DNA of 32,000 nt from Candidatus Saganbacteria bacterium (GTDB lineage: Bacteria > Margulisbacteria > WOR-1 > JAKLHX01), in the NCBI GenBank assembly GCA_026387835.1, contig JAPLKZ010000005.1, positions 60,001 to 92,000 on the forward strand. Reading direction: 5' to 3'. Within the stretch, counting starts at the first letter, position 1; every line of letters starts with the position of its first letter. The translations under genes were made by a program, and so were the position numbers. This document shows, one piece after another, positions 3 through 13,302 of the stretch. The notes below the pieces were generated by a model that was not told where the DNA came from, did not search any database, and saw only the letters and a program-made list of their open reading frames with translations.

Positions 3-566
3 ATATCATTATTGCTTTTATGCCTGATCTGTCCTTCCGCTATCGCTGAGGGTAAAAGTCTTTCTTTCGGGATCGGTATCCCGCATTTCGTAAGCGGCTA
101 TTATCTTATGAAAGCCGGCAGGGGCCTTGAGCTGGGATACGGCGCAGGAGGTCTTTATATCCCGCCGATGAAACAGGCCTGCGGCGCGGATGTCATGATA
201 AACGGGCTGAACATAGAAGCGATGCTGAGGAAATATATCATCAGTGATCTCTTTGCCGGTGCCAGGGTGGGATATCAGATATTTACGGCGCATTCTATAC
301 AGGAGGTCAATCCGCCTTTCTATGATTCGACCATCGGCCTGCGGGGCTTCTATCTGACGCCGTCGATCGGATACAATTTCAGGCTGAAAGGCTTCTCGAT
401 CATACCCGAGGTCGGGGTCCAGATACCTCTGGCATTTGAAAAATATGAAACAAAGGTAGGGCCCGGAGACCTGGAACCTTCGGTGAAGCAGGTTGTTAAT
501 GACAACATCAACAGAATGAATGCGGCCATGCCTTTTATCCAGATAAATTTCGGTTTTGCTTTTTAA
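3..566 (+). CDS. Small outer-membrane beta-barrel protein, 5' end probably cut by the window edge
   Basis: The frame is open back to base 3 and the track start at 12 is a TTG. The visible N-terminus (..LLLCLICPSAIA/EGK) looks like the tail of a signal peptide. Alternating hydrophobic beta-strand pattern. C-terminal ..INFGFAF ends in an aromatic Phe, typical of BAM substrates. Confidence 0.5.
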   Translation: MSLLLLCLICPSAIAEGKSLSFGIGIPHFVSGYYLMKAGRGLELGYGAGGLYIPPMKQACGADVMINGLNIEAMLRKYIISDLFAGARVGYQIFTAHSIQEVNPPFYDSTIGLRGFYLTPSIGYNFRLKGFSIIPEVGVQIPLAFEKYETKVGPGDLEPSVKQVVNDNINRMNAAMPFIQINFGFAF

Positions 567-758: not shown

Positions 759-1055
759 ATGAAAAGCATATTCGTAGGTAACCTTCCCTGGTCAGCCACG
801 GACGCGGAAATGACGGAAAAATTTTCCCAGTTCGGCAACGTGATATCGGCCAGAATAGTGAACGATAAGTTCACCGGAAAGTCGCGCGGATTTGGTTTTG
901 TTGATATGGAAGACGCGGATGCCGCAAAAGCTATAGCCGGGATGACCGGTTACAAGTGGGGCGACCGTGAACTGACAGTCAATGAAGGCAGACCCAAGAC
1001 CGACCGCCCGAGAGACGGCGGCGGCGGCGAAAGACGTTCATTCAACAGATATTAA
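759..1055 (+). CDS. RRM-type (RNP-1/RNP-2) glycine/arginine-tailed RNA-binding protein
   Basis: RNP-2 IFVGNL and RNP-1 RGFGFVDM motifs with canonical spacing. C-terminal RDGGGGERR tail. RBS AAAGGAG lies upstream of the ATG. Confidence 0.9.
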   Translation: MKSIFVGNLPWSATDAEMTEKFSQFGNVISARIVNDKFTGKSRGFGFVDMEDADAAKAIAGMTGYKWGDRELTVNEGRPKTDRPRDGGGGERRSFNRY

Positions 1056-1128: not shown

Positions 1129-1156
1129 TTGACAAGAATTAATATAGTGGTATATT
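1129..1156 (+). promoter_or_regulatory. Sigma70-like promoter with extended -10 (TTGACA-16 nt-TGgTATATT)
   Basis: Consensus -35 TTGACA at 1129-1134. TG at 1148-1149 and TATATT at 1151-1156. RBS AAGGA at 1166-1170 precedes the ATG at 1179. Confidence 0.5.
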
Positions 1157-1178: not shown

Positions 1179-2366
1179 ATGAAAACAAAAAAAGGTCTAT
1201 ATGTATTTTTTGCTTTCCTCCTGATCGCTCAACTCGGCATTTTTATTTACGGCTGCGGACAGACAAAACAATCATCGGGACCCACAGGCTCAATGTCCAG
1301 CACAAGCGCACTTTCTGTTGTGGTCAAAGACGCAGCTACCGGTTCGATAGTGCCGATGAGCTCAGTCTTTGTCAGCAAATCAAGTGTCACTCCGAGCTCG
1401 CGATTGCATACATCCTCGTCCAGTGACTGGGTAGAGGTCAAGGCCACCGACATGGGCATTGCGGACGTGTCTGACCTGAAAACCGACGCTTCAACGATGC
1501 TCAAAGTGGTAAAGGACGGCTATAAAGAATACGACAAGGTGGTGGATGCTGGGAAATCCATTACAGGCTATACAATTGAAATAGTAAAGACAACAGAGGC
1601 CACGGCAACACCTAAAGACACGGCATTCGATCCGACTTCGTCCGGGGGTTCTTCTACTTTGTATGCCTGCTCCAGCGTTTCCACATGCATGAGCTGCGGA
1701 TGTAATCCTGATTCGTCCATCGCTTGCGGAGGCGCGTGCGGCTGCACTGACAGTTCAACAAGCTGTAAAGGCGGAAAATGCAAAACAAGCGCTGCCGGAG
1801 GGGCAGGGACTTCAAGCTTCGGAAAATGTACGGATGCAGGATGTCCCACGGGATGTAAAAATTGCGGGGCTTGCGCCTGCACTTCCGCAGGAGGCTGCGG
1901 AGGATCTTCAAATTGCCCTATTAAAACATATACCGGAGGCGGAGGCAGCAGTGAATCCAGCGGAGCCTGTGCCGACAGTTTCTGCCCGACAGGATGCAAG
2001 GGCTGCGGTTCTTGCGTATGCACTTCAGCCGGCGGTTGCGGAGGATCTTCCTTCTGTACAGGCGGCTCAAAAGCGCCTGATTTCAGCAGCGGAGGCGGTG
2101 GCTGCACTGATGCCGGATGCCCTCCTGGATGCCGCGCTTGCGGATCCTGTGTTTGCACGACCGCTGGTAACTGCGGCGGATCAAGCAATTGCACATCAGG
2201 CGGCGGTAGTGGCGGTGGTGGCGGTGGTGGTGGCGGAATAGGTTGTTATGGTTCAGGATGCCCTGCTTCGTGCGCTACTTCACCATGCGGAGCTTGCAGT
2301 TGCACAACAAGTATCGGCGCTCCATGTTCCTCAAAAGGCGGAAGTTCTTATTGCACGGGAAGATAA
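1179..2366 (+). CDS. Cysteine-rich tandem-repeat lipoprotein (N-terminal PEGA/carboxypeptidase-regulatory-like beta domain plus C-terminal Cys/Gly/Ser repeats)
   Basis: Signal peptide with a lipobox-like IYG-C26. The segment VVVKDAATG...LKVVKDGYKEYDKVV resembles PEGA/CarboxypepD_reg folds. Residues 164-392 contain about 41 Cys arranged in repeated modules. The gene has its own promoter and terminator. Confidence 0.8.
   Translation: MKTKKGLYVFFAFLLIAQLGIFIYGCGQTKQSSGPTGSMSSTSALSVVVKDAATGSIVPMSSVFVSKSSVTPSSRLHTSSSSDWVEVKATDMGIADVSDLKTDASTMLKVVKDGYKEYDKVVDAGKSITGYTIEIVKTTEATATPKDTAFDPTSSGGSSTLYACSSVSTCMSCGCNPDSSIACGGACGCTDSSTSCKGGKCKTSAAGGAGTSSFGKCTDAGCPTGCKNCGACACTSAGGCGGSSNCPIKTYTGGGGSSESSGACADSFCPTGCKGCGSCVCTSAGGCGGSSFCTGGSKAPDFSSGGGGCTDAGCPPGCRACGSCVCTTAGNCGGSSNCTSGGGSGGGGGGGGGIGCYGSGCPASCATSPCGACSCTTSIGAPCSSKGGSSYCTGR
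1827..2354 (+). repeat. Intragenic tandem repeats: three 30-aa 8-Cys modules plus one degenerate module
   Basis: Module pattern is C-x-D-x-x-C-P-x-G-C-x-x-C-G-x-C-x-C-T-x-A-G-x-C-G-G-S-S-x-C. Copies lie at nt 1827-1916, 1968-2057 and 2103-2192, with a degenerate copy at 2244-2354. A looser proto-module lies at about 1668-1781. A GGY-codon run at about 2197-2237 encodes GGGSGGGGGGGGG. Confidence 0.8.
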
Positions 2367-2383
2367 TTCAACTTAATAACTTT

Positions 2384-2415
2384 AAAAAGGCGGATTTGAT
2401 TTTTCCGCCTTTTTT
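2384..2415 (+). terminator. Rho-independent terminator
   Basis: Stem AAAAAGGCGGA/TCCGCCTTTTT (GC core GGCGGA/TCCGCC), 9-nt loop, T-run at 2410-2415. Confidence 0.75.
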
Positions 2416-2445
2416 ATTTAAGATAATATAAGAAGGAGAAATAAT

Positions 2446-2637
2446 ATGAATAAAAACAGGATATTTTCTTTGATCTATATATTAATAGGCCTTTTAGTCA
2501 TCATTGTACCGTCATATATACTTCCCGTCTGCAACAATCCTATGATGTGCTGCAGAGCGCATACATTGCCGGTTTTGGTACTTTTGGGAGTGATCCTCAT
2601 AATACTTTCAGGAATGGAGTTCTTTCTGGATAAATGA
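2446..2637 (+). CDS. 63-aa two-TM membrane protein, DUF4418-like (half-size)
   Basis: Two hydrophobic helices flank the motif LPVCNNPMMCCRAHT. This resembles the FPVC...M.C motif I recall for DUF4418 proteins, which typically accompany FtsX/MacB transporters. RBS GAAGGAG is present. The stop overlaps the next start (ATGA at 2634-2637). Confidence 0.6.
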   Translation: MNKNRIFSLIYILIGLLVIIVPSYILPVCNNPMMCCRAHTLPVLVLLGVILIILSGMEFFLDK

Positions 2638-3812
2638 ACCTATTCTGGCTGGCTTATAAGAACTTTAAACGCAACAAATTCTGGACCGTGATCACAATTG
2701 TGATCGCGGCTGTTGCTATCGCTTCGATCTTTGCTTCTTTTACAATAGTTAACTGCATAAACTACAGCCTCGAGACGGGAAGGGAAAGGCTGGGAGCGGA
2801 CCTCGTAGTATTTCCTTCCGGTGAAGAAAATGCGATGATCAGTGCTTTTCAGACAGGAACTCCGGCGCTTTTTTATATGAAAAAAGACCTTACTGAAAAG
2901 ATCAAAAAGATCGATGGAGTGGATAAAGTCACTCCTGAACTTTTCCTGATGACGCTGTCAAAAAGCTGCTGCAGTCTCGGTATCCCCTTCAGGCTTATAG
3001 GATTTGATGCCTCGACAGATTTCGTGATAACCCCTTGGCTTCAAAAGAACAGGATAAACTCGCTTAAAGCAGATGAGGTGATAATCGGCGCTGATATCCC
3101 GTCAATGAAAGGTGAAAAAATTAAGATACTCGGAAGCGAGTTCAGAGTTGCCGGCGTCCTTGAAAGGACCGGCATCGGAGCGGATAAGTCCATCTATTTA
3201 CCGCTTGATTCAGCCAGGCAGCTCGCAATGCACAGCCTTATGATAAAGTACAGGCCTGATGAAATTTCCTCCGTCCTTGTAAAGGTCAGCAGCGGGACCG
3301 ATATAAGCGTGTGTGCAGAAAATATCAAGAAAGCGATCCCTCAGGTCGCCGTGATGGGAAGCTCGCAGTTCAACAGGGGCATAAAGGTCATATTTGACAG
3401 GATGGTAATAATGGCCGTCCTGATATTCATAGTGGTGATGGTACTCAGCTCGGTCAGCATAACAGGCGTCTTCTACGCGATGTCAAAAGCCAGGGGGCCG
3501 GAGATCGGCATACTGAGAAGCCTCGGCGCAACAAGAAGAGACATATTTTCCCTTGTCCTTATCGAATCAGTGTTTTCCACCGTCATCGGCGGTATCATCG
3601 GAGTCTTAGTATCTGCATTCTTGATCTATGACTTTAATCTCTTCCTCTCAAAACACCTGCCTTTTCCTTTTATACTGTCTTTTGGAGGGGTTGTTGAGAT
3701 GGGTGCCGTTTGTATCCTGATATCGGCCGTGCTCGGGCTTTTAGGCGCGCTTTATCCCGCGGCTAAAAGCTCAAAAATAGATCCTTTTGACGCGATCAGG
3801 CAGGGCAGTTAA
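2634..3812 (+). CDS. ABC transporter permease, FtsX/MacB family (N-terminal TM, periplasmic MacB-like domain, C-terminal FtsX 3-TM domain)
   Basis: Architecture is TM1, a periplasmic domain of about 230 aa, then three C-terminal TMs. The motif LRSLGATRRDIF is typical of the FtsX domain. Translationally coupled to both neighbours. Confidence 0.85.
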   Translation: MNLFWLAYKNFKRNKFWTVITIVIAAVAIASIFASFTIVNCINYSLETGRERLGADLVVFPSGEENAMISAFQTGTPALFYMKKDLTEKIKKIDGVDKVTPELFLMTLSKSCCSLGIPFRLIGFDASTDFVITPWLQKNRINSLKADEVIIGADIPSMKGEKIKILGSEFRVAGVLERTGIGADKSIYLPLDSARQLAMHSLMIKYRPDEISSVLVKVSSGTDISVCAENIKKAIPQVAVMGSSQFNRGIKVIFDRMVIMAVLIFIVVMVLSSVSITGVFYAMSKARGPEIGILRSLGATRRDIFSLVLIESVFSTVIGGIIGVLVSAFLIYDFNLFLSKHLPFPFILSFGGVVEMGAVCILISAVLGLLGALYPAAKSSKIDPFDAIRQGS

Positions 3813-3813
3813 G

Positions 3814-4479
3814 ATGATAGAACTTAAAAAAGCGACAAAATTATATAATGACGCAGGCAGCCTTATTTTTGCTGTGAACGAGATAGATCTTTCGATAAAA
3901 AAAGGCGACCTGATCTCGATAGCCGGTCCCTCGGGCTCAGGCAAGACCACTCTTTTGTCCCTGATCGGCTGTCTCACGAAACCTTCTTCAGGACATATTA
4001 TGATAGACGGAAGCGATGTCGCAAGCCTTGACGATGAAGCTCTTTCCGCTTTAAGGTCGGAAAAGATCGGTTTCGTCTTCCAGCAGGCTCACGTTATACC
4101 CACGATGACAGTACTTGAAAATGTCCTTCTTCCTCTTGTTTTCTCAAGAGAAAAAGATATTGAAAAAAAGAAAGAAAGGGCAGTAAAACTTCTGAGAGAC
4201 GTCGGACTCGACAGCCGCATAAACAGCCTCCCTAAAAACATGAGCGGAGGCCAGGTTAAACGCATTTCCATCGCAAGGGCTTTGATAAATTGCCCGGAGA
4301 TACTTCTCGCTGACGAGCCGACAGGAGACCTTGACCAGGCAAGCAGCAGGGAGATAATGGAAATACTTAAAAGAATGAACAGGGATGAAAACCTGACAGT
4401 GCTTCTGGTAACGCATAACCAGGAACTGGCGCAGGAAGCCCATATTAAGCTGAAGATGCGGGACGGAAAACTTGTATGA
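3814..4479 (+). CDS. ABC transporter ATP-binding protein (MacB/LolD-like)
   Basis: Walker A GPSGSGKTT, Q-loop FQQ, signature MSGGQVKR, Walker B LLADEPTGDLD, H-loop VTHN. I prefer the ATG at 3814 (one nt after the permease TAA) over the in-frame TTG at 3787. Confidence 0.9.
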   Translation: MIELKKATKLYNDAGSLIFAVNEIDLSIKKGDLISIAGPSGSGKTTLLSLIGCLTKPSSGHIMIDGSDVASLDDEALSALRSEKIGFVFQQAHVIPTMTVLENVLLPLVFSREKDIEKKKERAVKLLRDVGLDSRINSLPKNMSGGQVKRISIARALINCPEILLADEPTGDLDQASSREIMEILKRMNRDENLTVLLVTHNQELAQEAHIKLKMRDGKLV

Positions 4480-4895
4480 TCGTATGCAAAAGGATATTCT
4501 ATTTCCTTTTATGCATGATCCTTTTTCAAACAATTTCTTTTGCTAAAGAGATGATCGCATCCTATGAAGGCACTTCCCCGGGAGCTGATTGCAGCGCTCT
4601 TAAAACGACGATCGTCCTGTACAAAGGCTGCTGCGGAGCTATGGGGACTTATGATATGACTGACATATATATTGCTACGAAAGACGGGGATAAAACGTTC
4701 ACTTCAAAAGGGAAATGGCAGTATATTAAAGGAACAAAAAAGGACAAAGAAGCTATAGTGCTTCAGCTAAACTATGACAAACCAGATAAAATAAATAATT
4801 ATCTTGTTGTTGAGGGAAAATATATTAAACCGATCAATAAAGACCTGAACGAAATAAGCTGTCCTTATGGTCTGACGATGAAAAAGAAAAAATAA
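4476..4895 (+). CDS. Secreted NlpE N-terminal-domain-like protein (copper-associated CutF/NlpE family fold)
   Basis: Signal peptide ..TISFA/KE. YEGTSPGADCSALKTTIVL parallels the E. coli NlpE segment YRGVLPCADCSGIETSLFL, recalled from memory. ATGA overlap with the ATPase stop (4476-4479). Confidence 0.55.
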   Translation: MIVCKRIFYFLLCMILFQTISFAKEMIASYEGTSPGADCSALKTTIVLYKGCCGAMGTYDMTDIYIATKDGDKTFTSKGKWQYIKGTKKDKEAIVLQLNYDKPDKINNYLVVEGKYIKPINKDLNEISCPYGLTMKKKK

Positions 4896-4908
4896 AAAGA
4901 GATATTTC

Positions 4909-4937
4909 TTGACATATTCATCCGGTCAATTTACAAT
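4909..4937 (+). promoter_or_regulatory. Sigma70-like promoter (TTGACA-17 nt-TACAAT)
   Basis: -35 at 4909-4914 and -10 at 4932-4937. RBS GGGAGG at 4948-4953. ATG at 4961. Confidence 0.5.
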
Positions 4938-4960
4938 TCTTATATCAGGGAGGTAACAAT

Positions 4961-5611
4961 ATGAAACGTTTGTTGTTTGGCTTGCTGGTTTGTCTGATCC
5001 TTGTTGCTGCAGCTTCGGCAGAGATAATGATGACCGCGTGCCCGCTAGGTCAGGGAAAATGGAACGTGATGCTTGGTTCCATGGTGGACCAGAACTATTT
5101 CAACATGGGAAGCACGGATGTCATGTGGATGGACGCGGTAGGGTACGGGATAAATGACAGGCTGGACCTGTATGGGTCGATCGGTCTGGGTTATTCACAA
5201 AAAGCCACAGACCAGGCCAGGACCATGAACAGTATGACGATGTCGTCGATCGGCGTGGCAGCAAAATACACATTACTGAGCGAAGACCTGAAAATGCCCT
5301 TGTCATTGGCAGTGAACGCGGGGATCCGTACCTGCAACATGTCGATGGCCACCATGACAAACACACAATACAATACCGGCCTTGTAGCCAGCAAGATGAT
5401 AAAGCAATTCACCCCTTATGCAGGTGTGAATTACAGGACAACAAAACAGGCCTATGGCGATTATACGCAAATGGATTATACGATCGGAATGGGTATAGGG
5501 CCTATGGAAAGAATGTTCATGATAGAAGATACCCTTCAATATATAAACTTTGGAAGTTCTGCTTGGCAAAGCAACCAGATATCCGCGGGGTTCTGCTTTA
5601 ACCTGAATTGA
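4961..5611 (+). CDS. Methionine-rich secreted protein, probable outer-membrane beta-barrel
   Basis: Signal peptide ..VAAASA/EI. 21 Met in 216 aa, including the clusters TMNSMTMSS, CNMSMATMTN and GPMERMFM. Alternating beta-strand pattern. Confidence 0.6.
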   Translation: MKRLLFGLLVCLILVAAASAEIMMTACPLGQGKWNVMLGSMVDQNYFNMGSTDVMWMDAVGYGINDRLDLYGSIGLGYSQKATDQARTMNSMTMSSIGVAAKYTLLSEDLKMPLSLAVNAGIRTCNMSMATMTNTQYNTGLVASKMIKQFTPYAGVNYRTTKQAYGDYTQMDYTIGMGIGPMERMFMIEDTLQYINFGSSAWQSNQISAGFCFNLN

Positions 5612-5650
5612 TCTGATATCGATCAAGGGTTGGTTACTTATACCGGCCGA

Positions 5651-8119
5651 TCATTTGGCAAGAAGAGAAGACAGTTCTGTTAACTTCTCTAGAATCTCTC
5701 TGCGGACCCGGTCGGCAATAGTACGGTCCTTCGCAGTGTCCCATCGCGATAGAGAGACATCGGTTATTGGCGCGGTAACCCGGTCGGCTGCAGTGTCCAG
5801 AAGCACCCGGGCCGATGTTACTGCTTGATCCTCCACATCCTGCTTTTCAAGCTGTTCAACGCGGTCGCGAAGCATGCAAAGATATTCATAGTCTTCAACT
5901 CCCTCCCGGATAGCTTCCATCTGCTTGCTCGGTGTTACAGACTTGGAGTCTATAAATAAAGGAGAGTAGACCGGCGCGCCGTTGCCGAGATATTCGTTCT
6001 TCCATGAAGGGACCTCGGAAGCATCACTGAAAGACCAAAAAGATGAACCCTCGGCCTTATATTTCCACGCGAACCATTCCTGCAAACGATAATAAATGTA
6101 TGGGTCGAGCAGCCGGCTCGGGCCAAAGGTACTATAGAACCAAAGCTTGTGGCCTGCGTCGCGCTGCTTGATATAGAAATCGTCAAAATTCGGATCATGG
6201 CTGATCCAGACGGATAAATGCGGACTGAGCACCCGGCTCAAAGTAAACAAGTCAGGGGTCCCTTTCGATGGATCTGACCAGGAGGGATCCTCCCAAATAA
6301 TTACTTCTGGCTGGGCGGCAAGGATGATATTTGCGTACTCGATAATGATCCGGTCCTGTTCCGGCGTGCGGGGTTCATCCACAAGCAGAAGGCCAAGCCG
6401 GTTCGGCTTGATATCCCATTGCTCGAGCTGGCTGCACCACCAGTTGATCCAATCGGTCACGGCTTGCTGAAAAGCCGGCGTTCCTATCTGAAAACCAGCA
6501 AAACTTTCCTTGACATTGACAAAAACAAGATAATTACGCGCATTGGGCCAGAGCTGCAGCCAGGTATAGAACGCGAGCGGGTCCGGAGACTGGATCATGT
6601 GTCCGTTCGCGTCGAATTTGCCTGTAGGCAGCACCTTTAAAGTCCCCCAGGGTGAATCAACGAAGTGCTCACAGAGTTGTTGGACCAGCGCGCCGCGGTT
6701 CAGCGGGGTGACCGCATAAATGCGCTCGCGGTCCGTGTAATCCCAGCCGCTCACGTGCAACGCCGGCTGATCGGGGAATCTGAGAGGATAAATTTTCAAG
6801 CGGACGGGTATTGGCTTGCAACTTACGGCGTCACTGCCCAGAATGAGCCGGCCGTTATATTCCCCTGCTTTGACATTCTTTGGATGAAAGTTCAACCACA
6901 CTTGACAGGTAAGACCGGCTGGGATCTTTATTGCATAAATTCCTTTTTGATGTTGGATCAATGGCAATGCCGCCGCAACAGGCACACCAGGCTGGGTATC
7001 GGTGAACAACACCTCGTGAAATTCCACATAGGAAGGATCAGTACCTCCCGGCAAGCCTTTCAGGGTCAATGTAACTTTTGCATCGGTGTTTCCCGCATTA
7101 CTGAGATTGAAAACTTCGCCGCGGTATTCGTTGTTCATCATAGCCATGTTTATCGATGCATTGCCCCGGACCGGCGTGGTGATCGGGTTAAGCATGTCCC
7201 AGCGGTTGGTCTGCCAGCAGACGGTCCGGCGCAGGCCTTGTGCGCGCCAGATACCCGCCTGCACCGCGAAGATACTCCGATGAAGATCGTTTATCGGGAA
7301 GATCGTGCTGAAGGTATCCGGCAGATCGATCGTTGCGGCCGGGATCTTCTTTGCAATGGCCTTGAGCTTATTATTCAGCGGTCCGGAAACGTGATCAGGA
7401 AATCCGCCCGAATTCAATTCCCGGGTCACTGCGGCCAGGTCGTTTGCAAGTCTAAGCCTTAGAAAAGCGGCAGTCCGCATTTTGGTAAAGAAAGCCGGCA
7501 GATCAGCGATCTTCGGACCTGTAAAGGGCTTCATCAAATACGCGTCCGGGCCTTTATAGACCCCGATCTCATCCGCATAAGTATAAGCGCCCCTGGGTGC
7601 GACCACAAATTTTACGTATCGCCCGTGAGTTTTAAAACCCATGCTCTGAAAGCGATAAACGGCGGGACCTGAAACAGTAGGAGCGGTGGTTTTTCCGCTC
7701 AGAGCGACCAGGTCGCCCTCATAATGCCAGATATTTCCGTCATCGCTCACAAGAATAAAAATAGCGCCCGGGAACAAGATGCCGGTAGTATACATATTAG
7801 TATTGATAGCCGCATTGTAGGAAAATCCTGCGATCGGCTGGGTTTCCCCCAGATCGACGGTCATCACTACCGGTGAAGTGTTTTTCCAGCCAACGGCCCC
7901 CTTTAGGGACCAGGGCTTGCCCTTGACATATTGCCCGTCTGTTAAACTCGTGAGATCGCTCGCATCATTGCGAGCAGGGAAGTTCGGTCCCGGCTCCAAT
8001 TGATACTTCTTTCCCAAGGCGAGATCGAGCGCCGAGTCAGGGGATAATACGGAAATTGCGGCCCATACAGCTATCGAAAACAACAGCAGAAAAGATATGA
8101 TAATTATTCGCTGAAACAC
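5651..8119 (-). CDS. Secreted discoidin (F5/8 type C)-domain protein with a large C-terminal hydrolase-like region (possibly DUF4091/GH-like)
   Basis: Signal peptide present. The N-terminal segment LTSLTDGQ...VDLGETQPIAGF...HGRYVKFVV...ADEIGVY matches the discoidin/galactose-binding-like pattern. The C-terminal 550 aa is Trp/Tyr-rich (VDEP, WFYSTFGP, FWSF), and its function is a guess. Confidence 0.55.
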   Translation of the reverse strand: MFQRIIIISFLLLFSIAVWAAISVLSPDSALDLALGKKYQLEPGPNFPARNDASDLTSLTDGQYVKGKPWSLKGAVGWKNTSPVVMTVDLGETQPIAGFSYNAAINTNMYTTGILFPGAIFILVSDDGNIWHYEGDLVALSGKTTAPTVSGPAVYRFQSMGFKTHGRYVKFVVAPRGAYTYADEIGVYKGPDAYLMKPFTGPKIADLPAFFTKMRTAAFLRLRLANDLAAVTRELNSGGFPDHVSGPLNNKLKAIAKKIPAATIDLPDTFSTIFPINDLHRSIFAVQAGIWRAQGLRRTVCWQTNRWDMLNPITTPVRGNASINMAMMNNEYRGEVFNLSNAGNTDAKVTLTLKGLPGGTDPSYVEFHEVLFTDTQPGVPVAAALPLIQHQKGIYAIKIPAGLTCQVWLNFHPKNVKAGEYNGRLILGSDAVSCKPIPVRLKIYPLRFPDQPALHVSGWDYTDRERIYAVTPLNRGALVQQLCEHFVDSPWGTLKVLPTGKFDANGHMIQSPDPLAFYTWLQLWPNARNYLVFVNVKESFAGFQIGTPAFQQAVTDWINWWCSQLEQWDIKPNRLGLLLVDEPRTPEQDRIIIEYANIILAAQPEVIIWEDPSWSDPSKGTPDLFTLSRVLSPHLSVWISHDPNFDDFYIKQRDAGHKLWFYSTFGPSRLLDPYIYYRLQEWFAWKYKAEGSSFWSFSDASEVPSWKNEYLGNGAPVYSPLFIDSKSVTPSKQMEAIREGVEDYEYLCMLRDRVEQLEKQDVEDQAVTSARVLLDTAADRVTAPITDVSLSRWDTAKDRTIADRVRREILEKLTELSSLLAK

Positions 8120-8154
8120 TACCAGTTCTCCATCTTAGCCTGCATTGTATGAAT

Positions 8155-9141
8155 TTACTTCTTTTCGAACGGGTGAATGATCTTCCAATCGTCCTTCATG
8201 CTCACAACCGTCCAGCCTTTGGACAGGGCCTGGTCAAGACCTTTGTCGAAGGGATCGCTGCACTTGCGGTCATAAGCCCACTCGCGCTTCGCATCGGTAT
8301 GATGTACATAAAGACAAAAATGGGGGCCGCTGCCAGCTGCTGTCCATTGCATCATCGGAAGGTCGTTATCGGAATTACCGAATGATGCGATCGGGTGTTT
8401 GCCGATTTGGGATTGGATACCGACGGGTTTGCCGTTTCCGGCGGAGATAAAATTCACTGCCGGCAGACCAACGATCACCGGTTTTCCGCTGCGAAGCTCA
8501 AACTTCGTCTTTATGCTGCTTCCTATGACTTGTTCGGGTACAACACCATAGGTCTTTTCCGACCACGGACGCATAAAATCGGTACTGCCACCGGAGACAA
8601 TGTAAGTTTTGAATCCGTTCGCGCGCATGTAGGCGAGCACCTCAAGCATTGGCTGAAAAATCATCTCTGTATATAGCCGCTTGGTCTTAGGATGCTTCGC
8701 GGTGGCGATCCAGTCAGTCACGAGTTTTTCATATTCATCCGTGGTTATCCCCGACTGAGTGGTTATCATCATTTCCGCAAGCGCGTTGTTTATGCCGCCG
8801 GCCATCGCGGAGTTCATGTCACCTTTGAGAATAGAAGCAAAAGGCTCCTTGCTTTTCCACTCCGGATGCTTTGGCGCAAGGGCTTTGATGCGGGATAAGA
8901 TAAAGTAGACCTGGGAAGCCTGCGGCTGCTCCGTCCAAAGCGTGCCGTCATTGTCAAAGGTGGCGATGCGTTTATTAACCGGCACAAAATCCCGCGAGCC
9001 GGGTTTTGTCACCTTCCCGACAAAGGCGATGATAGCTTTCTTCGGTGCGGTGTTGTTCCAGGATGGCAGGGGATCTACAACAGCTAAGGCTGCGTTTGCA
9101 AGCAGCAGAACGAGAAGACTTTTTGCAAATAAACTTTTCAC
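8155..9141 (-). CDS. Secreted HAD-superfamily phosphatase
   Basis: GTG start and a signal peptide ..ANAALA/VV. HAD motif I FDNDGTLW, motif II-like VSGGS, and a C-terminal GNSDNDLPM (motif IV, DxxD type). Confidence 0.75.
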   Translation of the reverse strand: MKSLFAKSLLVLLLANAALAVVDPLPSWNNTAPKKAIIAFVGKVTKPGSRDFVPVNKRIATFDNDGTLWTEQPQASQVYFILSRIKALAPKHPEWKSKEPFASILKGDMNSAMAGGINNALAEMMITTQSGITTDEYEKLVTDWIATAKHPKTKRLYTEMIFQPMLEVLAYMRANGFKTYIVSGGSTDFMRPWSEKTYGVVPEQVIGSSIKTKFELRSGKPVIVGLPAVNFISAGNGKPVGIQSQIGKHPIASFGNSDNDLPMMQWTAAGSGPHFCLYVHHTDAKREWAYDRKCSDPFDKGLDQALSKGWTVVSMKDDWKIIHPFEKK

Positions 9142-9143
9142 AA

Positions 9144-10913
9144 TTAATTACTCCCCGGAGCTGCATATTTACCCATCTTAGCCTGCATTTCCCTGCTCAA
9201 CTGTTTAATAAGCACTGCGTTATATGATCCGGTCGGAATCGGCTTAATGGTCGGATCCTTTGTTGGATTAACATTATATATGTCGAAACCAACTATCTGT
9301 TGTTCCGCAACAGCATATTCACGCGATCTTGCCGCGGGAGAGCCCTTTTTGACCGCCGGATCAACGTCGGTGGTGACGATCGAGATCGTATTGTCGCTGT
9401 TAAGGAATATCTCAAAAGTTCGGAACTGCTGCGGGAAATCCCGGAGCGAACAAGTCTCTACCTCCCAGAAGCCTTTTTCGGGAGCGTTGACCGGATCAGG
9501 CGATATAAATGCTTTAACAATATTCAAATGGCGGTGACCCGAGATCCACATCATAAAGTTCGGATGGCTCTGAAGTTCGGCTATCAGGCCCGGAAGCGAC
9601 ACGGCATTTTGAGGATCGGTCCACCATCCCATTTCGGACCTGGGTGCGGTCACTTCTACGTTTATCGGCACATGTGCAGCGATGATCATCAGCTGACATG
9701 CGGCATCTCCGGCAGCAAGTTCTTTTTTAAGCCAGGTCCAGCGTGCAGAGTCAAGAAAGCCATGGCCGTGCACATCATTAGAATTATCGTTTTCCTTTTG
9801 GGTATCATCGAGCACTATGACCTTTATAGGGACGGATGACTTCGGCACAAAGCTATAACATGCAAAACCCTTGTCCGCGTCGGCAGGATTAAATCCGTGT
9901 CCGGCAGGGTTTGATGAAGTATTGAAAAATTCTTTCATCCATTCATCCCTCTTGAGTGAACGGCGGTCAGGATCGGCCGCGACTTTTGGAGGGTTCTTAA
10001 AATCTGCAACAGGGCCTGCGTATCTGATCTTAACGTCAGAGGCCGAACAATCGAATACTCCCATATAGAAATCGTGTTTGTTTATATTCGCGGGGTTTCT
10101 CAGGATATCTCCCATGGCCATGACTTCGCTTGTTATGTAAGTCTGCCGGAAATCCTTTCTGAGGTTATAGTCCACAGGGACTGAACCGATCCAGAAATGA
10201 TCGTGGTTGCCGAGCGTCTGATACCAGGGGATAGACTTATCAAGCCCTGCCGCTTTGTAAGGTTTCTGATAATCGATGCTACCGGCACCGATATGAGCAC
10301 CGGAACTCGGGGTGATGACCTTGCCGTCAAGGACATCGATATACCATCTTGTTTCGTTGTACTGTGTGCTGTTAGCGGCATCGCCCAGAGAGATCCCGAA
10401 ATCAAAAGGATCTTTTTTGTTTAGAGCATTTATCGTCTGTACTGCCGCATCAAGGACATGTGTTGTATACATCATGACCCCTGAACATAGCGAAGCGCTG
10501 ATCGGCAATGCTTTGTATATATGGGAAAGATAGATCGCCTGATTGGGAGCTTCTTTATCGGTAATATGTATGTCGGATATTGTAAAGAAATTTAAAAGTT
10601 TAGTTTTTTTAGTTACCGATGCACCTTTGTAAGTTGCCGGCATTATATCGGTCCTCACGTCTGCTTTGGCAGGACCGCCATACTTCCAGCTGCCATAGCC
10701 ATATTGTTTGTATTTTGAGAATTCATCAAGAGCGATCGATACAGGCGGTTTTGGGCCGGGTTTGATCGTCCTTTGGAGCGTCGTAAAAACATCAGAAGAG
10801 ATCGGGTATCCCTGGAGCTGACCGCTGCTTTTTAAGCATCCGAATAAAGAAAAGACCAGCATAGCCGCTAAAAAGACAAAACAGGACCTTTTAAACTCAT
10901 AAGACTTTTTCAT
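9144..10913 (-). CDS. Lipoprotein metallophosphoesterase (calcineurin-like; resembles the TIGR03768-type family)
   Basis: Lipobox LFG-C. Metallophosphoesterase motifs ISDIHITD, GDAANSTQYNE, GNHDHFW, AAHVP and SGHRH. Strong RBS AAGGAGGG. Confidence 0.8.
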   Translation of the reverse strand: MKKSYEFKRSCFVFLAAMLVFSLFGCLKSSGQLQGYPISSDVFTTLQRTIKPGPKPPVSIALDEFSKYKQYGYGSWKYGGPAKADVRTDIMPATYKGASVTKKTKLLNFFTISDIHITDKEAPNQAIYLSHIYKALPISASLCSGVMMYTTHVLDAAVQTINALNKKDPFDFGISLGDAANSTQYNETRWYIDVLDGKVITPSSGAHIGAGSIDYQKPYKAAGLDKSIPWYQTLGNHDHFWIGSVPVDYNLRKDFRQTYITSEVMAMGDILRNPANINKHDFYMGVFDCSASDVKIRYAGPVADFKNPPKVAADPDRRSLKRDEWMKEFFNTSSNPAGHGFNPADADKGFACYSFVPKSSVPIKVIVLDDTQKENDNSNDVHGHGFLDSARWTWLKKELAAGDAACQLMIIAAHVPINVEVTAPRSEMGWWTDPQNAVSLPGLIAELQSHPNFMMWISGHRHLNIVKAFISPDPVNAPEKGFWEVETCSLRDFPQQFRTFEIFLNSDNTISIVTTDVDPAVKKGSPAARSREYAVAEQQIVGFDIYNVNPTKDPTIKPIPTGSYNAVLIKQLSREMQAKMGKYAAPGSN

Positions 10914-10924
10914 AAACCCTCCTT

Positions 10925-11905
10925 TTAGAACTTATATGCAACACCTACATTATGATTGAAATTCGCGGCGAATTTATCGGCTGAAAGCCATAAGAAGCTG
11001 TAATAGCCGATATCAAGCTTGTCGTCGATCTTATAGCTGTATCCCAGGGTTACCGCGCCGTCAGGATTTGTCCTGTAATTATATATCCCGGCCCTGAATG
11101 AACTTCTGGTCCAAAAATTTTCTTTGTCCTTGGCCTGCGGGGTATACTCAAAGCCTGCCGAATAATAAGGATCACCATAACTTCTGAAAGCATCATAGAT
11201 ACCGGCATTGACCACCAGTCCTTTTAACTTCCCCTCGGGCATCCAGGCTATGGAAGGCCTGAAATTCACGCCATCACCAACAGAGTTGCTGAATTCCTGT
11301 TTCCATCCGGGGATGTCAGGAGATGTTGTATAACCCGACAACAGCCAGAAATTCTCGCAATGTACGCCGAGAGACCATTCTTTGTTCATTCTCCACAGGT
11401 AATCAAGATGTATCTGATTTTGGACGGTATCGGTCATTACCCTGGTCCCGAAAGGAGATCCGTAATCTTCCGACCGATAGTAAAAATAACCTATACCAAG
11501 AGACATAGTTTCGTTCCAGGGAAGCCTGAATCCTATGCTCGGCGAAAGCGCGACCGCTCCTCCTCCGCTCCACTCCCCGGCAAAGGTCCAGCCTAAATTC
11601 CCGTTTATCTTATGGGCGAAATTGACGGAGTCATAATATGAATTACCGACCCTTGCTTCCCTATTGAATAAACCGTCGTTGTCCAAAAACCGGGTCGTCA
11701 GAATGATCTGGTTTTCTCCATTTTTCCACTTATCCAACTGGGCAACGCCCGCCCTGTTCCAGTAAGCGCAGTTCGCGTCATCAGCCACGGCGACAAATGT
11801 GCCGCCCATTCCCATGGGACGGTAACCCCAGCACGCAAACGAGGTCTCAAGGAACATCACGGTCATCATCAGAAAAACGAATAAAACAAAAATCAGCTTT
11901 TTCAT
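10925..11905 (-). CDS. Outer-membrane beta-barrel (porin-like) protein, first gene of the phosphoesterase operon
   Basis: Signal peptide present. Aromatic-girdle-rich alternating strands. C-terminal ..VGVAYKF with a terminal Phe. RBS GAGGAGG. Confidence 0.6.
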   Translation of the reverse strand: MKKLIFVLFVFLMMTVMFLETSFACWGYRPMGMGGTFVAVADDANCAYWNRAGVAQLDKWKNGENQIILTTRFLDNDGLFNREARVGNSYYDSVNFAHKINGNLGWTFAGEWSGGGAVALSPSIGFRLPWNETMSLGIGYFYYRSEDYGSPFGTRVMTDTVQNQIHLDYLWRMNKEWSLGVHCENFWLLSGYTTSPDIPGWKQEFSNSVGDGVNFRPSIAWMPEGKLKGLVVNAGIYDAFRSYGDPYYSAGFEYTPQAKDKENFWTRSSFRAGIYNYRTNPDGAVTLGYSYKIDDKLDIGYYSFLWLSADKFAANFNHNVGVAYKF

Positions 11906-11977
11906 GCTTGCCTCCTCTGTTATGCCAAAATTTACAAATTACCAACATTCAACGAATATTTTATAAATATTGAATAT

Positions 11978-12006
11978 ATCTTATAATGGAGACTGCATGA
12001 TGTCAA
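11978..12006 (-). promoter_or_regulatory. Candidate promoter of the minus-strand operon (TTGACA ... TATAAG/TAAGAT)
   Basis: On the minus strand, TTGACA lies at 12006-12001, followed after 15-17 nt by TATAAG/TAAGAT (11985-11978). It is divergent from the plus-strand promoter at 12016. Confidence 0.3.
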
Positions 12007-12015
12007 GAAATTCTT

Positions 12016-12044
12016 TTGACAGCTGCTAAAAATTCTATTATACT
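12016..12044 (+). promoter_or_regulatory. Sigma70-like promoter (TTGACA-17 nt-TATACT)
   Basis: -35 at 12016-12021 and -10 at 12039-12044. RBS AAAGGAG precedes the ATG at 12067. Confidence 0.5.
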
Positions 12045-12066
12045 TTAACCAAAAAAGGAGTAATAA

Positions 12067-13302
12067 ATGAGAAAGACCGTTCTATTGTTCTGTGTCTTTG
12101 GTCTCTTTGCAGTTTCCTTCTTCTTGTCTTCCTGCGGCGGTCTTTCTCTGCGCAAGGCGGCCGTTTTTGAGGGCGGGATCCTTTACCGGACCGCCAATGA
12201 TAAATTTTATGTTCCGGTCCTTAAAGGGAGCTGGCGGGAGATGGGGCGGCAATACGGAGGTCTGCTCAAGCCACAGCTGAACGAATTCTATAATTCAGTC
12301 ACAGACTATCTCACTTCTGAGGGGATATCTTATAAAGACCAAAAAGCGAGCGCATACGCGCTTTTTAATACTTATACTGACCGCCGCCTCAAGGAGCTCG
12401 TTTATGGCATGGCGGAAACCTCCGGCCTTGGCAATGAAAAGCAGATAATGGTGAACGCGGCTTTTATGAACCTGGCGCAGTATGCCGGGATTTGGGCCGA
12501 GAAAGCAAACAAGCCAAAGACCAAAAAAGGCTGCAGCGGCGTTGCTGTATGGGACAACTACAGCCATGACGGCAAAATGATCTTCGGCCGTGATTGGGAT
12601 TTCTATTCAGTCGCATACTGGAAAAGATGGCTGCCCTCGCTGACCATTGCGGTATTCAATCCTGACGACGGATCCAACAGTGTCGCCGATATAGAATTTC
12701 TTGGATCGATCTTTACCGAGACCGCCATTAATAACAAAGGTATCTTCGCGGAATTGAACAATGGCATGCAGTCAGATCCGACTTTGACCAAAGGAAGGAC
12801 TCAGGGCCCTGTATCCCTGCTTTCTTTCATGTTTGATTGTTCAACCATAGACGAGTTTGAAAAAACAATCGAGAAGACTCCTGACGATGTATCCTATATC
12901 ATCCAGGTGGCAGGAAAAGATGCTGCCTATTCTTTTGAATGGCCCACATGGGGAGTGAGAAGAAGATCGGAAAAAGAGAGTGGATATCTGGTCGCTTACA
13001 ATAGTTTTGTCAGGCCTTTGCCTGTCTCATGGGAAAAAAAAGTTCCCCCGCCAGTTCCCCAGGATACGCGCAGAAATAATCTGCTCTCGCTGGTAAGTTC
13101 AAAAAAATACAAGGGCAGGATCGATGTCCCCGCGATGAAGGAAATACTCGGTATCTCATGGGAAGCCGGCGGGTCTACTCATGGCGGCACAGCTTATCAG
13201 GTAATAACGGCTCCCGGAGATCAAACGGTTTGGCTTAAGGGGATAGGGTATTCTGACTGGGAAAAGATCGATCTCAAACCGCTGTTCAGACGTAAAACTT
13301 GA
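12067..13302 (+). CDS. Lipoprotein, C45-peptidase / acyl-CoA:6-APA acyltransferase-like Ntn hydrolase
   Basis: Lipobox LSS-C. An internal KKG-CSGVAVWD resembles the autoprocessing Gly-Cys nucleophile site of the C45/choloylglycine-type Ntn hydrolase family. The family call is from memory of that pattern only. Confidence 0.55.
   Translation: MRKTVLLFCVFGLFAVSFFLSSCGGLSLRKAAVFEGGILYRTANDKFYVPVLKGSWREMGRQYGGLLKPQLNEFYNSVTDYLTSEGISYKDQKASAYALFNTYTDRRLKELVYGMAETSGLGNEKQIMVNAAFMNLAQYAGIWAEKANKPKTKKGCSGVAVWDNYSHDGKMIFGRDWDFYSVAYWKRWLPSLTIAVFNPDDGSNSVADIEFLGSIFTETAINNKGIFAELNNGMQSDPTLTKGRTQGPVSLLSFMFDCSTIDEFEKTIEKTPDDVSYIIQVAGKDAAYSFEWPTWGVRRRSEKESGYLVAYNSFVRPLPVSWEKKVPPPVPQDTRRNNLLSLVSSKKYKGRIDVPAMKEILGISWEAGGSTHGGTAYQVITAPGDQTVWLKGIGYSDWEKIDLKPLFRRKT

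Follow-up and report, generated by a model that had tools for sequence, protein, structure and literature searches.

The Pco/Cop/Cus systems, which serve Cu(I) and Ag(I), are marked by clustered methionines (Met) in envelope proteins and by an outer-membrane barrel (PcoB/CopB). ATP-binding cassette (ABC) systems of type VII mechanotransmit onto substrates or partners in the periplasm or the outer leaflet (PMC5985334, PMC12646458). The ABC system NosDFY is needed for the copper-sulfur centre of N2O reductase, and NosL is a Cu(I) chaperone lipoprotein, in which copper is bound by sulfur ligands only, including flexible Met side chains (PMC8457098). In Campylobacter jejuni, FetABCDEF, accessory to iron uptake by FetMP (P19), includes an ABC transporter, a cysteine (Cys)-bearing membrane protein with DUF2318, and thioredoxins (PMC10783030). 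Here we describe a locus of six genes at positions 1179-5611, plus strand, of a 32,000-nt stretch of DNA (the window) from a Candidatus Saganbacteria bacterium (contig JAPLKZ010000005.1, positions 60,001 to 92,000). The envelope gene set encoded there, with a Cys-rich lipoprotein, an ABC core including a DUF4418 protein, an NlpE-like protein and a Met-rich barrel, is undescribed. Its tightest unit is the 42-Cys lipoprotein together with the barrel, and we tentatively suggest that this pair and the ABC core act on a soft metal ion.

An earlier, sequence-only reading had taken all six genes as a single system. Calling of open reading frames (ORFs) and Pfam confirmed the six same-strand genes together with their overlaps and domain assignments, and inspection of the sequence found the junctions exactly where that reading had placed them (ATGA at 2634-2637, TAAgATG at 3810-3816 and ATGA at 4476-4479). 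The six genes are as follows.

1179..2366, plus strand: lipoprotein of 395 amino acids (aa) with 42 Cys, a signal peptide and the lipobox IYGC (Cys26)
2446..2637, plus strand: half-size DUF4418 protein of 63 aa with one transmembrane (TM) hairpin (Pfam PF14387)
2634..3812, plus strand: type VII (MacB-type) ABC permease of 392 aa with vicinal Cys112-Cys113 in the periplasmic domain (Pfam)
3814..4479, plus strand: ABC ATPase of 221 aa, a LolD/MacB/FtsE-like nucleotide-binding subunit (ABC_tran, 1.6e-33)
4476..4895, plus strand: secreted NlpE N-domain-like protein of 139 aa (Pfam PF04170, 45.7 bits against a cut-off of 22, 1.2e-11)
4961..5611, plus strand: outer-membrane beta-barrel of 216 aa with 21 Met, in which Cys27 and Cys212 are conserved (AlphaFold, alignment)

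The genome (1.5 Mb, 95% complete) belongs to a small phylum of 146 species genomes. Among its 1111 long ORFs, the lipoprotein is the most Cys-rich and the barrel the most Met-rich, and both are located inside this one 4.4-kb locus.

Comparison with described systems

The likeness to NosDFY-NosL lies in the combination of an ABC system, with its ATPase in the cytoplasm, and a Cu(I) lipoprotein, and NosL-family genes adjoin DUF4418 in Nitrospirota. NosY is, however, of the six-helix ABC-2 type and NosD is a periplasmic carrier, whereas the permease here is of the four-helix MacB type with an ectodomain, a Cys-Cys (CC) pair and a DUF4418 partner. None of NosZ, NosD, NosY and NosL was seen in the window region examined (1-9 kb); NosL adjoins the triad in other phyla only. 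The locus at most works alike and is not a member of that system; the presumed client here is the 42-Cys lipoprotein. With MacAB-TolC, LolCDE, FtsEX and YbbAP-TesA it shares the MacB_PCD plus FtsX architecture and a separate ATPase, but no membrane-fusion protein or TolC-like gene is present, the permease scores far under the LolCE and MacB equivalog cut-offs, and it is set apart by an invariant-type ectodomain CC, an obligate DUF4418 partner and its occurrence in monoderms and archaea.

The Met-rich barrel resembles what is seen in Pco/Cop/Cus. No sequence relationship to these systems was detected, however; the Met residues are spread over strands at positions predicted to face the lumen instead of lying in MxxM-type tails, and there is no resistance-nodulation-division (RND) pump, multicopper oxidase or CusF-like protein. 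The Cys region of the lipoprotein is similar to SmtA/BmtA, MymT and Csp1 in its dense conserved Cys, CxC/CxxC spacing and low-complexity, hydrophobic-poor sequence, but these are of small size and for the most part cytoplasmic, or form four-helix bundles (Csp), while the lipoprotein is 395 aa long with a folded N-domain and tandem modules; no homology to bacterial metallothioneins or Csp was detected.

Pairing of the lipoprotein with the barrel

A search of 5.8 billion proteins identified ten homologs of the lipoprotein (47-56% identity), and a metagenome scan with the barrel added two loci (L143 and L144). The gene content around the lipoprotein is summarized below.

Window: lipoprotein, DUF4418, permease, ATPase, NlpE-like gene, barrel
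L001: divergent barrel, lipoprotein, DUF4418, permease, ATPase
L019: divergent barrel, lipoprotein, DUF4418, permease, ATPase
Two contigs known from gene calls: lipoprotein, DUF4418 (an uncalled gap in one of them), permease, ATPase
L003, L004 and L005/6: divergent barrel, lipoprotein; no ABC genes
L143 and L144: divergent barrel, lipoprotein; short contigs, no ABC gene seen

The lipoprotein and barrel genes are adjacent in all eight loci for which nucleotide sequence was available, in two arrangements. Outside the window, the barrel homologs are unannotated genes for 212-223 aa, divergent from the lipoprotein gene (E 1e-63 to 1e-72 against the window barrel); the window represents a second, independent arrangement of the pair. 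The genes for DUF4418, permease and ATPase directly follow the lipoprotein gene in five of ten loci, these five having at least three different flanks, and in L001 the lipoprotein gene overlaps the start of the ABC genes. The idea that the lipoprotein is an obligate partner of the ABC core was rejected, as L003, L004 and L005/6 have no core. A search of the phylum's 145 further genomes gave no match to the lipoprotein. As to the six families once proposed as one system, five recur together elsewhere and the NlpE-like gene is linked in the window only, so that the single six-gene system dissolves: there is no conserved six-gene unit, and the NlpE-like gene joined it only here.

The lipoprotein, which matches no family in Pfam, NCBIfam or PDB, is composed of a transthyretin/CarboxypepD_reg-like beta-sandwich (approximately residues 43-150) and a region of 235 residues with 41 Cys. 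Three exact 30-residue modules of eight Cys each (217-246, 264-293 and 309-338) follow the pattern C-x4-CP-x2-C-x2-CG-x-C-x-C-x5-C-x5-C, with degenerate modules and a poly-Gly tract adjoining them. The Cys region consists of low-complexity sequence with CxC and CxxC arrays, in which Cys accounts for 17.4% of the 235 residues, Gly for 26% and Ser for 17%, with no His, eight aromatics and scarce hydrophobics. Each Cys is invariant or nearly so in the alignment of 11 sequences, in support of the sequence-only reading. High Cys fraction, CxC/CxxC arrays, few aromatics and Cys conservation are together the marks of a metallothionein-like protein. In the AlphaFold model, the N-domain (predicted local distance difference test, pLDDT, 57-80) weakly matches transthyretin-like and CnaB sandwich folds, and the Cys region is not folded (pLDDT below 40), as expected of an apo-metallothionein-like chain. 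A PDB sequence search with the Cys region gave nothing but Gly-linker artefacts. At L019 (4503-5816, plus strand), the public annotation skips the lipoprotein gene, in place of which it carries a pair of ORFs on the opposite strand (89 and 178 aa); Cys/Gly-rich genes of this family are probably under-annotated.

Since the genome search gave neither DsbB nor VKOR, and no DsbA above the cut-off, the exported cysteines are probably free thiols rather than a disulfide knot. An HMA domain was not found in the genome, either. Its sole P-type ATPase (C5:100946-101494 region) has no CPx metal motif and is KdpB-like by eye; HMA-bearing ATPases are present in half of 30 relatives. A role of the module as a stand-in for the missing CopA was rejected, because five of seven family relatives also have neither HMA nor the module.

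The product of the sixth gene has a signal peptide, an even number of amphipathic strands and a barrel fold, as an outer-membrane barrel should. Weak matches to DUF6588 and OMP_b-brl were found in Pfam, and the AlphaFold model (pLDDT 73.9, predicted template modelling score 0.70) forms a barrel of 10 strands with Foldseek matches to FapF, COG4313, OpcA and OmpT in the PDB (E 3e-6 to 1e-4). With 21 Met in 216 aa, the estimate of about 10% Met in the sequence-only reading was correct. Among six aligned barrels that are paired with the lipoprotein, Met makes up 9.0-10.4%, and 14 of 21 Met columns as well as Cys27 and Cys212 are invariant at just 50-55% identity; the barrels of L143 and L144 are likewise Met-rich. 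In eleven barrels encoded by other members of the phylum, Met accounts for 2.2-4.9% and there are 0-1 Cys, and 66 representative homologs of the wider barrel family contain 0.3-6% Met. The Met enrichment of the barrel thus tracks pairing with the lipoprotein. An explanation as a quirk of one protein was rejected, the divergent gene beside each lipoprotein homolog being equally Met-rich.

Nine of the conserved Met (37, 41, 55, 57, 92, 94, 127, 132 and 185), located in strands 1, 2, 4, 5, 6 and 9, are in the polar phase, the same as that of the conserved Asn, Asp, Gln, Lys and Glu. Further conserved Met lie at the barrel mouths, in the outer loops (49, 89 and 129) and at the periplasmic end (23, 24, 146 and 182). 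Two non-conserved Met (171 and 177) fall in the hydrophobic, lipid-facing phase. As judged from strand phase, the conserved Met would face the lumen of the barrel or sit at its two mouths.

The ABC core

The DUF4418 protein matches the family (47.3 bits against a cut-off of 27, 3e-12) at model positions 61-117, that is, in the second half only. Alignment of 13 members indicated that DUF4418 is an internal duplication, in which each outward loop carries P-x-C-x(n)-M-x-C, and half-size forms keep one such loop. The C-x(n)-M-x-C motif is a family feature derived in the present analysis, and the window protein carries it as PVC-NNPMM-CC (C29-NNPMM-C35-C36). The Cys cluster noticed before, PVCx5MCC, is therefore real but was misspelled, PVC-NNPM-MCC meaning C-x5-CC. 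DUF4418 is single-copy in every genome where it was found, including that of the window, and was not found in the remaining 145 genomes of the phylum (146 searched). In the literature, the family is mentioned in a single paper, which is unrelated.

The permease contains MacB_PCD (PF12704, 5.9e-13, residues 18-233) and FtsX (PF02687, 2.3e-17, residues 263-383). The MacB periplasmic core between TM1 and TM2, the C-terminal FtsX domain and the cognate ATPase alongside are those of a type VII ABC system. Its ectodomain includes the sequence TLSKSCCSLG...LIGFDxxTDFxIxPW, which corresponds to [ST]L[ST]xxCCS...IGFDPxTDFxIxPW in the subfamily. The CC motif is conserved in 20 of 21 aligned subfamily members, and in five of them these are the sole two Cys; it was not found, by alignment, in the two other MacB_PCD proteins of the genome nor in two Fet-like permeases. 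The ATPase gene starts 2 nt after the permease stop, and its product is under the cut-off of every NCBIfam equivalog.

A permease of the CC subfamily is located within 1.5 kb of DUF4418 in all 12 loci of a first survey (Clostridia, Methanomassiliicoccales, another euryarchaeon and Nitrospirota). A contig scan with a generic FtsX motif pattern gave 80 loci, six of which belonged to the CC-permease subfamily. The triad of DUF4418, CC-permease and ATPase is widespread in Bacteria and Archaea and is uncharacterised; it occurs in about 4% of Clostridia and about 15% of Nitrospirota among the sampled genomes, and also in methanogen relatives and spirochetes.

Two described type VII systems were considered and rejected. 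For LolCDE, the permease gives only 51.2 bits with TIGR02212 against the LolCE cut-off of 362, with the C-terminal half alone matching; a housekeeping sorter is at variance with the lack of any permease ortholog at E <= 1e-30 in 30 relatives, and the triad is present in monoderm Clostridia and archaea, which have no outer membrane. The check on whether the ABC system might be a LolCDE-type sorter unrelated to its neighbours therefore came out against LolCDE, by score as well as by distribution. For a MacAB-TolC pump, no MacA/HlyD-type adaptor or TolC family was found among nine region proteins, and the barrel is 10-stranded and not TolC-like.

Permease orthologs of 58-59% identity that carry the CC motif but stand without DUF4418 were observed in L017 (5264-7833) and L018 (3310-5690). 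The former is translationally coupled to genes for AMP-binding, acyl carrier protein (ACP) and acyltransferase, and the latter to a PEMT gene with Lnt nearby.

Neighbourhoods of the ABC core in other lineages

In Clostridia and Methanomassiliicoccales, nine of ten triad loci have group-IV nitrogenase-like genes and/or NitT/TauT-type importers no more than 6 kb away, in operon-like clusters that often also hold cysteine synthase, Cys/Met pyridoxal phosphate (PLP) enzymes and Rrf2. In L120-L129 (Clostridia and one Methanomassiliicoccales archaeon), the clusters were also seen to carry NifB and NifX homologs. Group-IV nitrogenase-like genes are reported to co-localise with genes of sulfur metabolism, and some of them to serve the acquisition of organic sulfur (PMC13753814, PMC13474568); a transporter of DUF4418 type is not mentioned in these reports. 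No nitrogenase-like genes are present in the window's genome. A plasmid search returned five records, of which two were looked into and that of Treponema was informative: on pTS2 of Treponema saccharophilum (L146, 5675-7745; RefSeq annotation), the triad is accompanied by cysteine synthase, Rrf2, Cys/Met PLP enzymes and an ABC importer, with no nitrogenase-like genes in the stretch inspected.

Among Nitrospirota, DUF4418 was found in 38 of 251 genomes. Of 14 loci analysed, eight or nine have NosL-family genes beside DUF4418, and 11 encode a secreted beta-propeller related to GHGGH-bearing ones. A recurrent operon was observed at approximately locus position 6700 in L148-L158 (genomes G421, G615, G612, G475, G617, G573, G600 and others), consisting of secreted beta-propeller, CC-permease, tetratricopeptide repeat (TPR) lipoprotein, NosL, DUF4418 and ATPase; in many cases YeeE/YedE Sulf_transp genes and barrels that are Cys-tipped or Met-rich lie close by. 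From its gene content, this operon looks like an assembly line for a copper-sulfur or similar centre in the propeller protein.

A third type of neighbourhood recalls the Fet genes. FetB and FetC are MacB-type permeases. The published account of the set speaks just of ABC permeases (PMC10783030). The CC-permease of one Nitrospirae genome (L027) lies between an FtrD-like/DUF2318 gene and a thioredoxin gene, a set resembling FetABCDEF, and the statement that MacB-type pumps are unlinked to metals is not supported in view of this likeness to an accessory set for iron uptake (PMC10783030). In L124 (genome G184, 4394-12948, minus strand), a Fet-like set composed of a P19-type Iron_transport protein, an FtrD-like membrane protein, two MacB-type permeases without CC and an ATPase was observed beside an FMN_bind lipoprotein and the DUF4418 triad. 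The likeness has its limits: the Fet-like permeases of L124 have no CC, and the window has no P19, Ftr1 or DUF2318. Extracytoplasmic thiol chemistry is the thread common to all these contexts of the ABC core.

The NlpE-like gene and the organization of transcription

The N-terminal lipocalin-like domain of Escherichia coli NlpE (CutF) is recognisable in the fifth gene product, which differs, however, in several respects. The signal peptide ends with ...TISFA/KE without Cys at +1, so there is no lipobox, and the homologs have none, either. The C-terminal OB-fold domain is missing (139 aa against a full length of about 236 aa; NF007814, 41.7 bits against a cut-off of 243). The CXXC motif is down to one Cys, PCADC of E. 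coli NlpE (2Z4H) being aligned with PGADC here; the NlpE metal/redox signature was said to be kept, but the 'x' before ADC conceals the replacement of the first CXXC Cys by Gly. The protein also carries an extra, inserted YKGCCGAMGTYD loop, and this CC-x-x-M insertion is common to three homologs of 59-72% identity.

Elsewhere the NlpE-like homologs are not beside the module, and with linkage in the window alone, membership of this gene in a conserved set was rejected. One homolog, in L021, has genes for an RRM protein and an ECF sigma as neighbours, and another follows two small barrels in a relative of the same class. The RRM protein encoded upstream of the present locus (98 aa, window 759-1055) has an ortholog (E 1e-49) at L021 6760-7053, directly downstream of the NlpE-like ortholog, with genes for an LTXXQ protein, a small protein and an ECF sigma alongside. 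The RRM and NlpE-like genes thus seem to have been adjacent for long, and in the window the four-gene cassette now lies between them. In L001 (11250-12020, plus strand), a papain-family (Peptidase_C1) gene overlaps the end of the ATPase gene in place of the NlpE-like gene, and the fifth position of the operon is therefore variable.

The following signals were identified between the genes.

1078-1101: terminator of the upstream RRM gene, followed by the promoter at 1129..1156
1129..1156, plus strand: sigma-70-like promoter of the lipoprotein gene, TTGACA-16-TATATT with TG (11 of 12 consensus matches)
2384..2420, plus strand: terminator-like hairpin with U-run, separating the lipoprotein gene from the ABC genes (11-bp stem, 9-nt loop)
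4909..4937, plus strand: sigma-70-like promoter of the barrel gene, TTGACA-17-TACAAT (11 of 12 consensus matches)

The hairpin (-16.5 kcal/mol, z = -2.9), which a consensus terminator scan did not pick up owing to its loop length, may be a partial terminator that sets stoichiometry. Because it splits the first gene from the second, and because separate promoters with 11 of 12 matches precede genes 1 and 6, the locus is likely to consist of three transcription units rather than one operon. At the edge of the window, a truncated ORF (3-566, plus strand) encodes a small barrel-like protein ending with ...NFGFAF, with no family match and no homolog in the related loci.

Possible function of the locus

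Going by which genes are present and how they lie together, by the conservation of residues, and by the predicted folds and the contexts, we favour, at a little under an even chance, the reading that the two modules act together on a thiophilic ligand in the envelope. The likeliest ligand would be a soft metal ion, Cu(I) for example, possibly in the form of a copper-sulfur species. In the first module, the thioether-lined barrel would act at the outer membrane by passing or holding the ion. The lipoprotein, with its transthyretin-like domain and about five metallothionein-like 8-Cys modules, would be a high-capacity thiolate sink or carrier. The second module, present in about half of the loci, would be a type VII ABC mechanotransmitter made of the permease with its outward Cys-Cys, DUF4418 with C-x(n)-M-x-C loops, and the ATPase. 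On the outer side of the inner membrane, the ligand would be loaded or unloaded at the expense of ATP hydrolysed in the cytoplasm, as is done for copper by NosDFY with NosL in N2O reductase assembly; this step would be natural for the core, since type VII ABC systems mechanotransmit onto periplasmic partners. In the window genome, the NlpE N-like protein with its own CC-x-x-M loop would be an add-on. The ligand, the contacts between the proteins and the direction of movement, whether sequestration or efflux as opposed to acquisition, are what we infer here. A soft metal is favoured because methionine takes no part in persulfide chemistry, yet the barrel is predicted to be lined with thioethers. 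The soft-metal system proposed from the sequence alone thus has Met and Cys conservation, the thiols of the core and the NosL neighbours on its side, while the sulfur-assimilation contexts leave the ligand contested.

Several observations weigh against a soft metal or against a joint action of the two modules. The orientation of the Met residues was read from strand phase in the sequence and not from coordinates. P0074, the nearest homolog of the barrel (56% identity), contains only 4.1% Met and has lost most of the conserved Met as well as Cys27 and Cys212; this may reflect relaxed selection after loss of the lipoprotein partner. Recognised metal genes, such as those for a metal-responsive regulator, CopA or a cupredoxin, are lacking in the window. 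Most of the paired loci share flanks (TrkA, a Lactamase_B-family gene and a HAD hydrolase) and therefore represent one lineage, so that the adjacency in eight of eight loci does not amount to eight independent events. Three to five of the lipoprotein-barrel loci have no ABC core, which is therefore dispensable for the lipoprotein-barrel module. In Clostridia and Methanomassiliicoccales, the core is found in sulfur-assimilation/nitrogenase-like clusters, and in Treponema in a sulfur amino-acid cluster, with no obvious copper protein; YeeE/YedE-type Sulf_transp genes adjoin it in five of 14 Nitrospirota loci.

The last two points are also those on which sulfur or thiol trafficking becomes a serious rival, although we consider it unlikely. 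The cargo of the core at the outer face of the membrane would then be sulfide or sulfane sulfur, a thiol of low molecular weight or an organosulfur compound, and the lipoprotein would be a persulfide/polysulfide carrier or a thiol buffer. Nine of the ten triad loci of Clostridia and Methanomassiliicoccales would fit, with their sulfur, importer and group-IV nitrogenase-like genes, the last being tied to sulfur metabolism (PMC13753814, PMC13474568), as would the similar cluster on pTS2 and the Sulf_transp neighbours in Nitrospirota. The 14 invariant Met of the barrel are, however, left unexplained, thioethers being outside persulfide and thiol-disulfide chemistry; the NosL neighbours point to copper, and here the locus has no sulfur-assimilation gene and the genome no nitrogenase-like gene.

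A role in surface-lipoprotein biogenesis appears improbable. The core would extract the lipoprotein from the inner membrane in a Lol-like manner, and the barrel would anchor it in the outer membrane or expose it on the surface, with Cys and Met serving structure or adhesion. Pairs of a barrel and a lipoprotein are known (LptDE and RcsF-OmpA), the C-terminal half of the permease is shared with LolC/E (TIGR02212, 51 bits), its orthologs of 58-59% identity have as neighbours either genes for acyl-ACP and acyltransferase or PEMT with Lnt nearby, and the lipoprotein gene immediately precedes the ABC genes, overlapping them in L001. The score is, however, far short of the 362 bits for LolCE, and the triad is common in monoderm Clostridia and archaea, which have no outer membrane. 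A permease ortholog was not found in 30 relatives, nor DUF4418 in any of the 145 further genomes of the phylum. Moreover, three to five lipoprotein-barrel pairs have no core, and the conserved CC and C-M-C motifs would be unexplained.

It is very unlikely that the Met- and Cys-rich proteins form a sacrificial redox shield, scavenging oxidants or electrophiles next to an unrelated ABC system. Their extreme Met and Cys content and the thioredoxin-like genes that accompany the triad in some lineages would agree with it, but neither a methionine sulfoxide reductase nor a thiol reductase is encoded in the locus, invariant and phase-specific Met would be superfluous in a bulk scavenger, and the ABC core has matching thiol motifs of its own. 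A chance neighbourhood with no shared function has little to recommend it, even with probably three transcription units, an NlpE-like gene unlinked elsewhere and an ABC core in some loci only, as the lipoprotein-barrel pair recurs in two arrangements, the barrel composition shifts with pairing, and five loci, among which at least three different flanks occur, have the ABC genes straight behind that of the lipoprotein.

Returning to the soft-metal reading, a bolder extension, which we regard as doubtful, is that the triad makes up a distinct pan-prokaryotic class of type VII ABC systems, in which, under the control of ATP, clients outside the cytoplasm receive a thiophilic metal or a metal-sulfur unit from outward thiolates. 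Here, together with the lipoprotein and the barrel, it would form a complete Cu(I)-like envelope path without P-type ATPase, RND pump or multicopper oxidase.

If the soft-metal reading is true, the locus would represent a new way of handling soft metals outside the cytoplasm, with new parts: an outer-membrane barrel with a methionine ladder, a lipid-anchored metallothionein-like protein and an ABC mechanotransmitter working via Cys pairs. The conservation at residue level (14 Met, 42 Cys and the CC pairs) provides direct targets for mutagenesis. For nitrogenase-like sulfur-acquisition clusters, genetic context has so far been of little help in identifying the substrates (PMC13474568). The orphan DUF4418 and its permease gain a testable functional hypothesis, and the triad links contexts that have been unexplained, namely NosL genes, secreted beta-propellers often with GHGGH, sulfur transporters and the nitrogenase-like clusters for sulfur acquisition.

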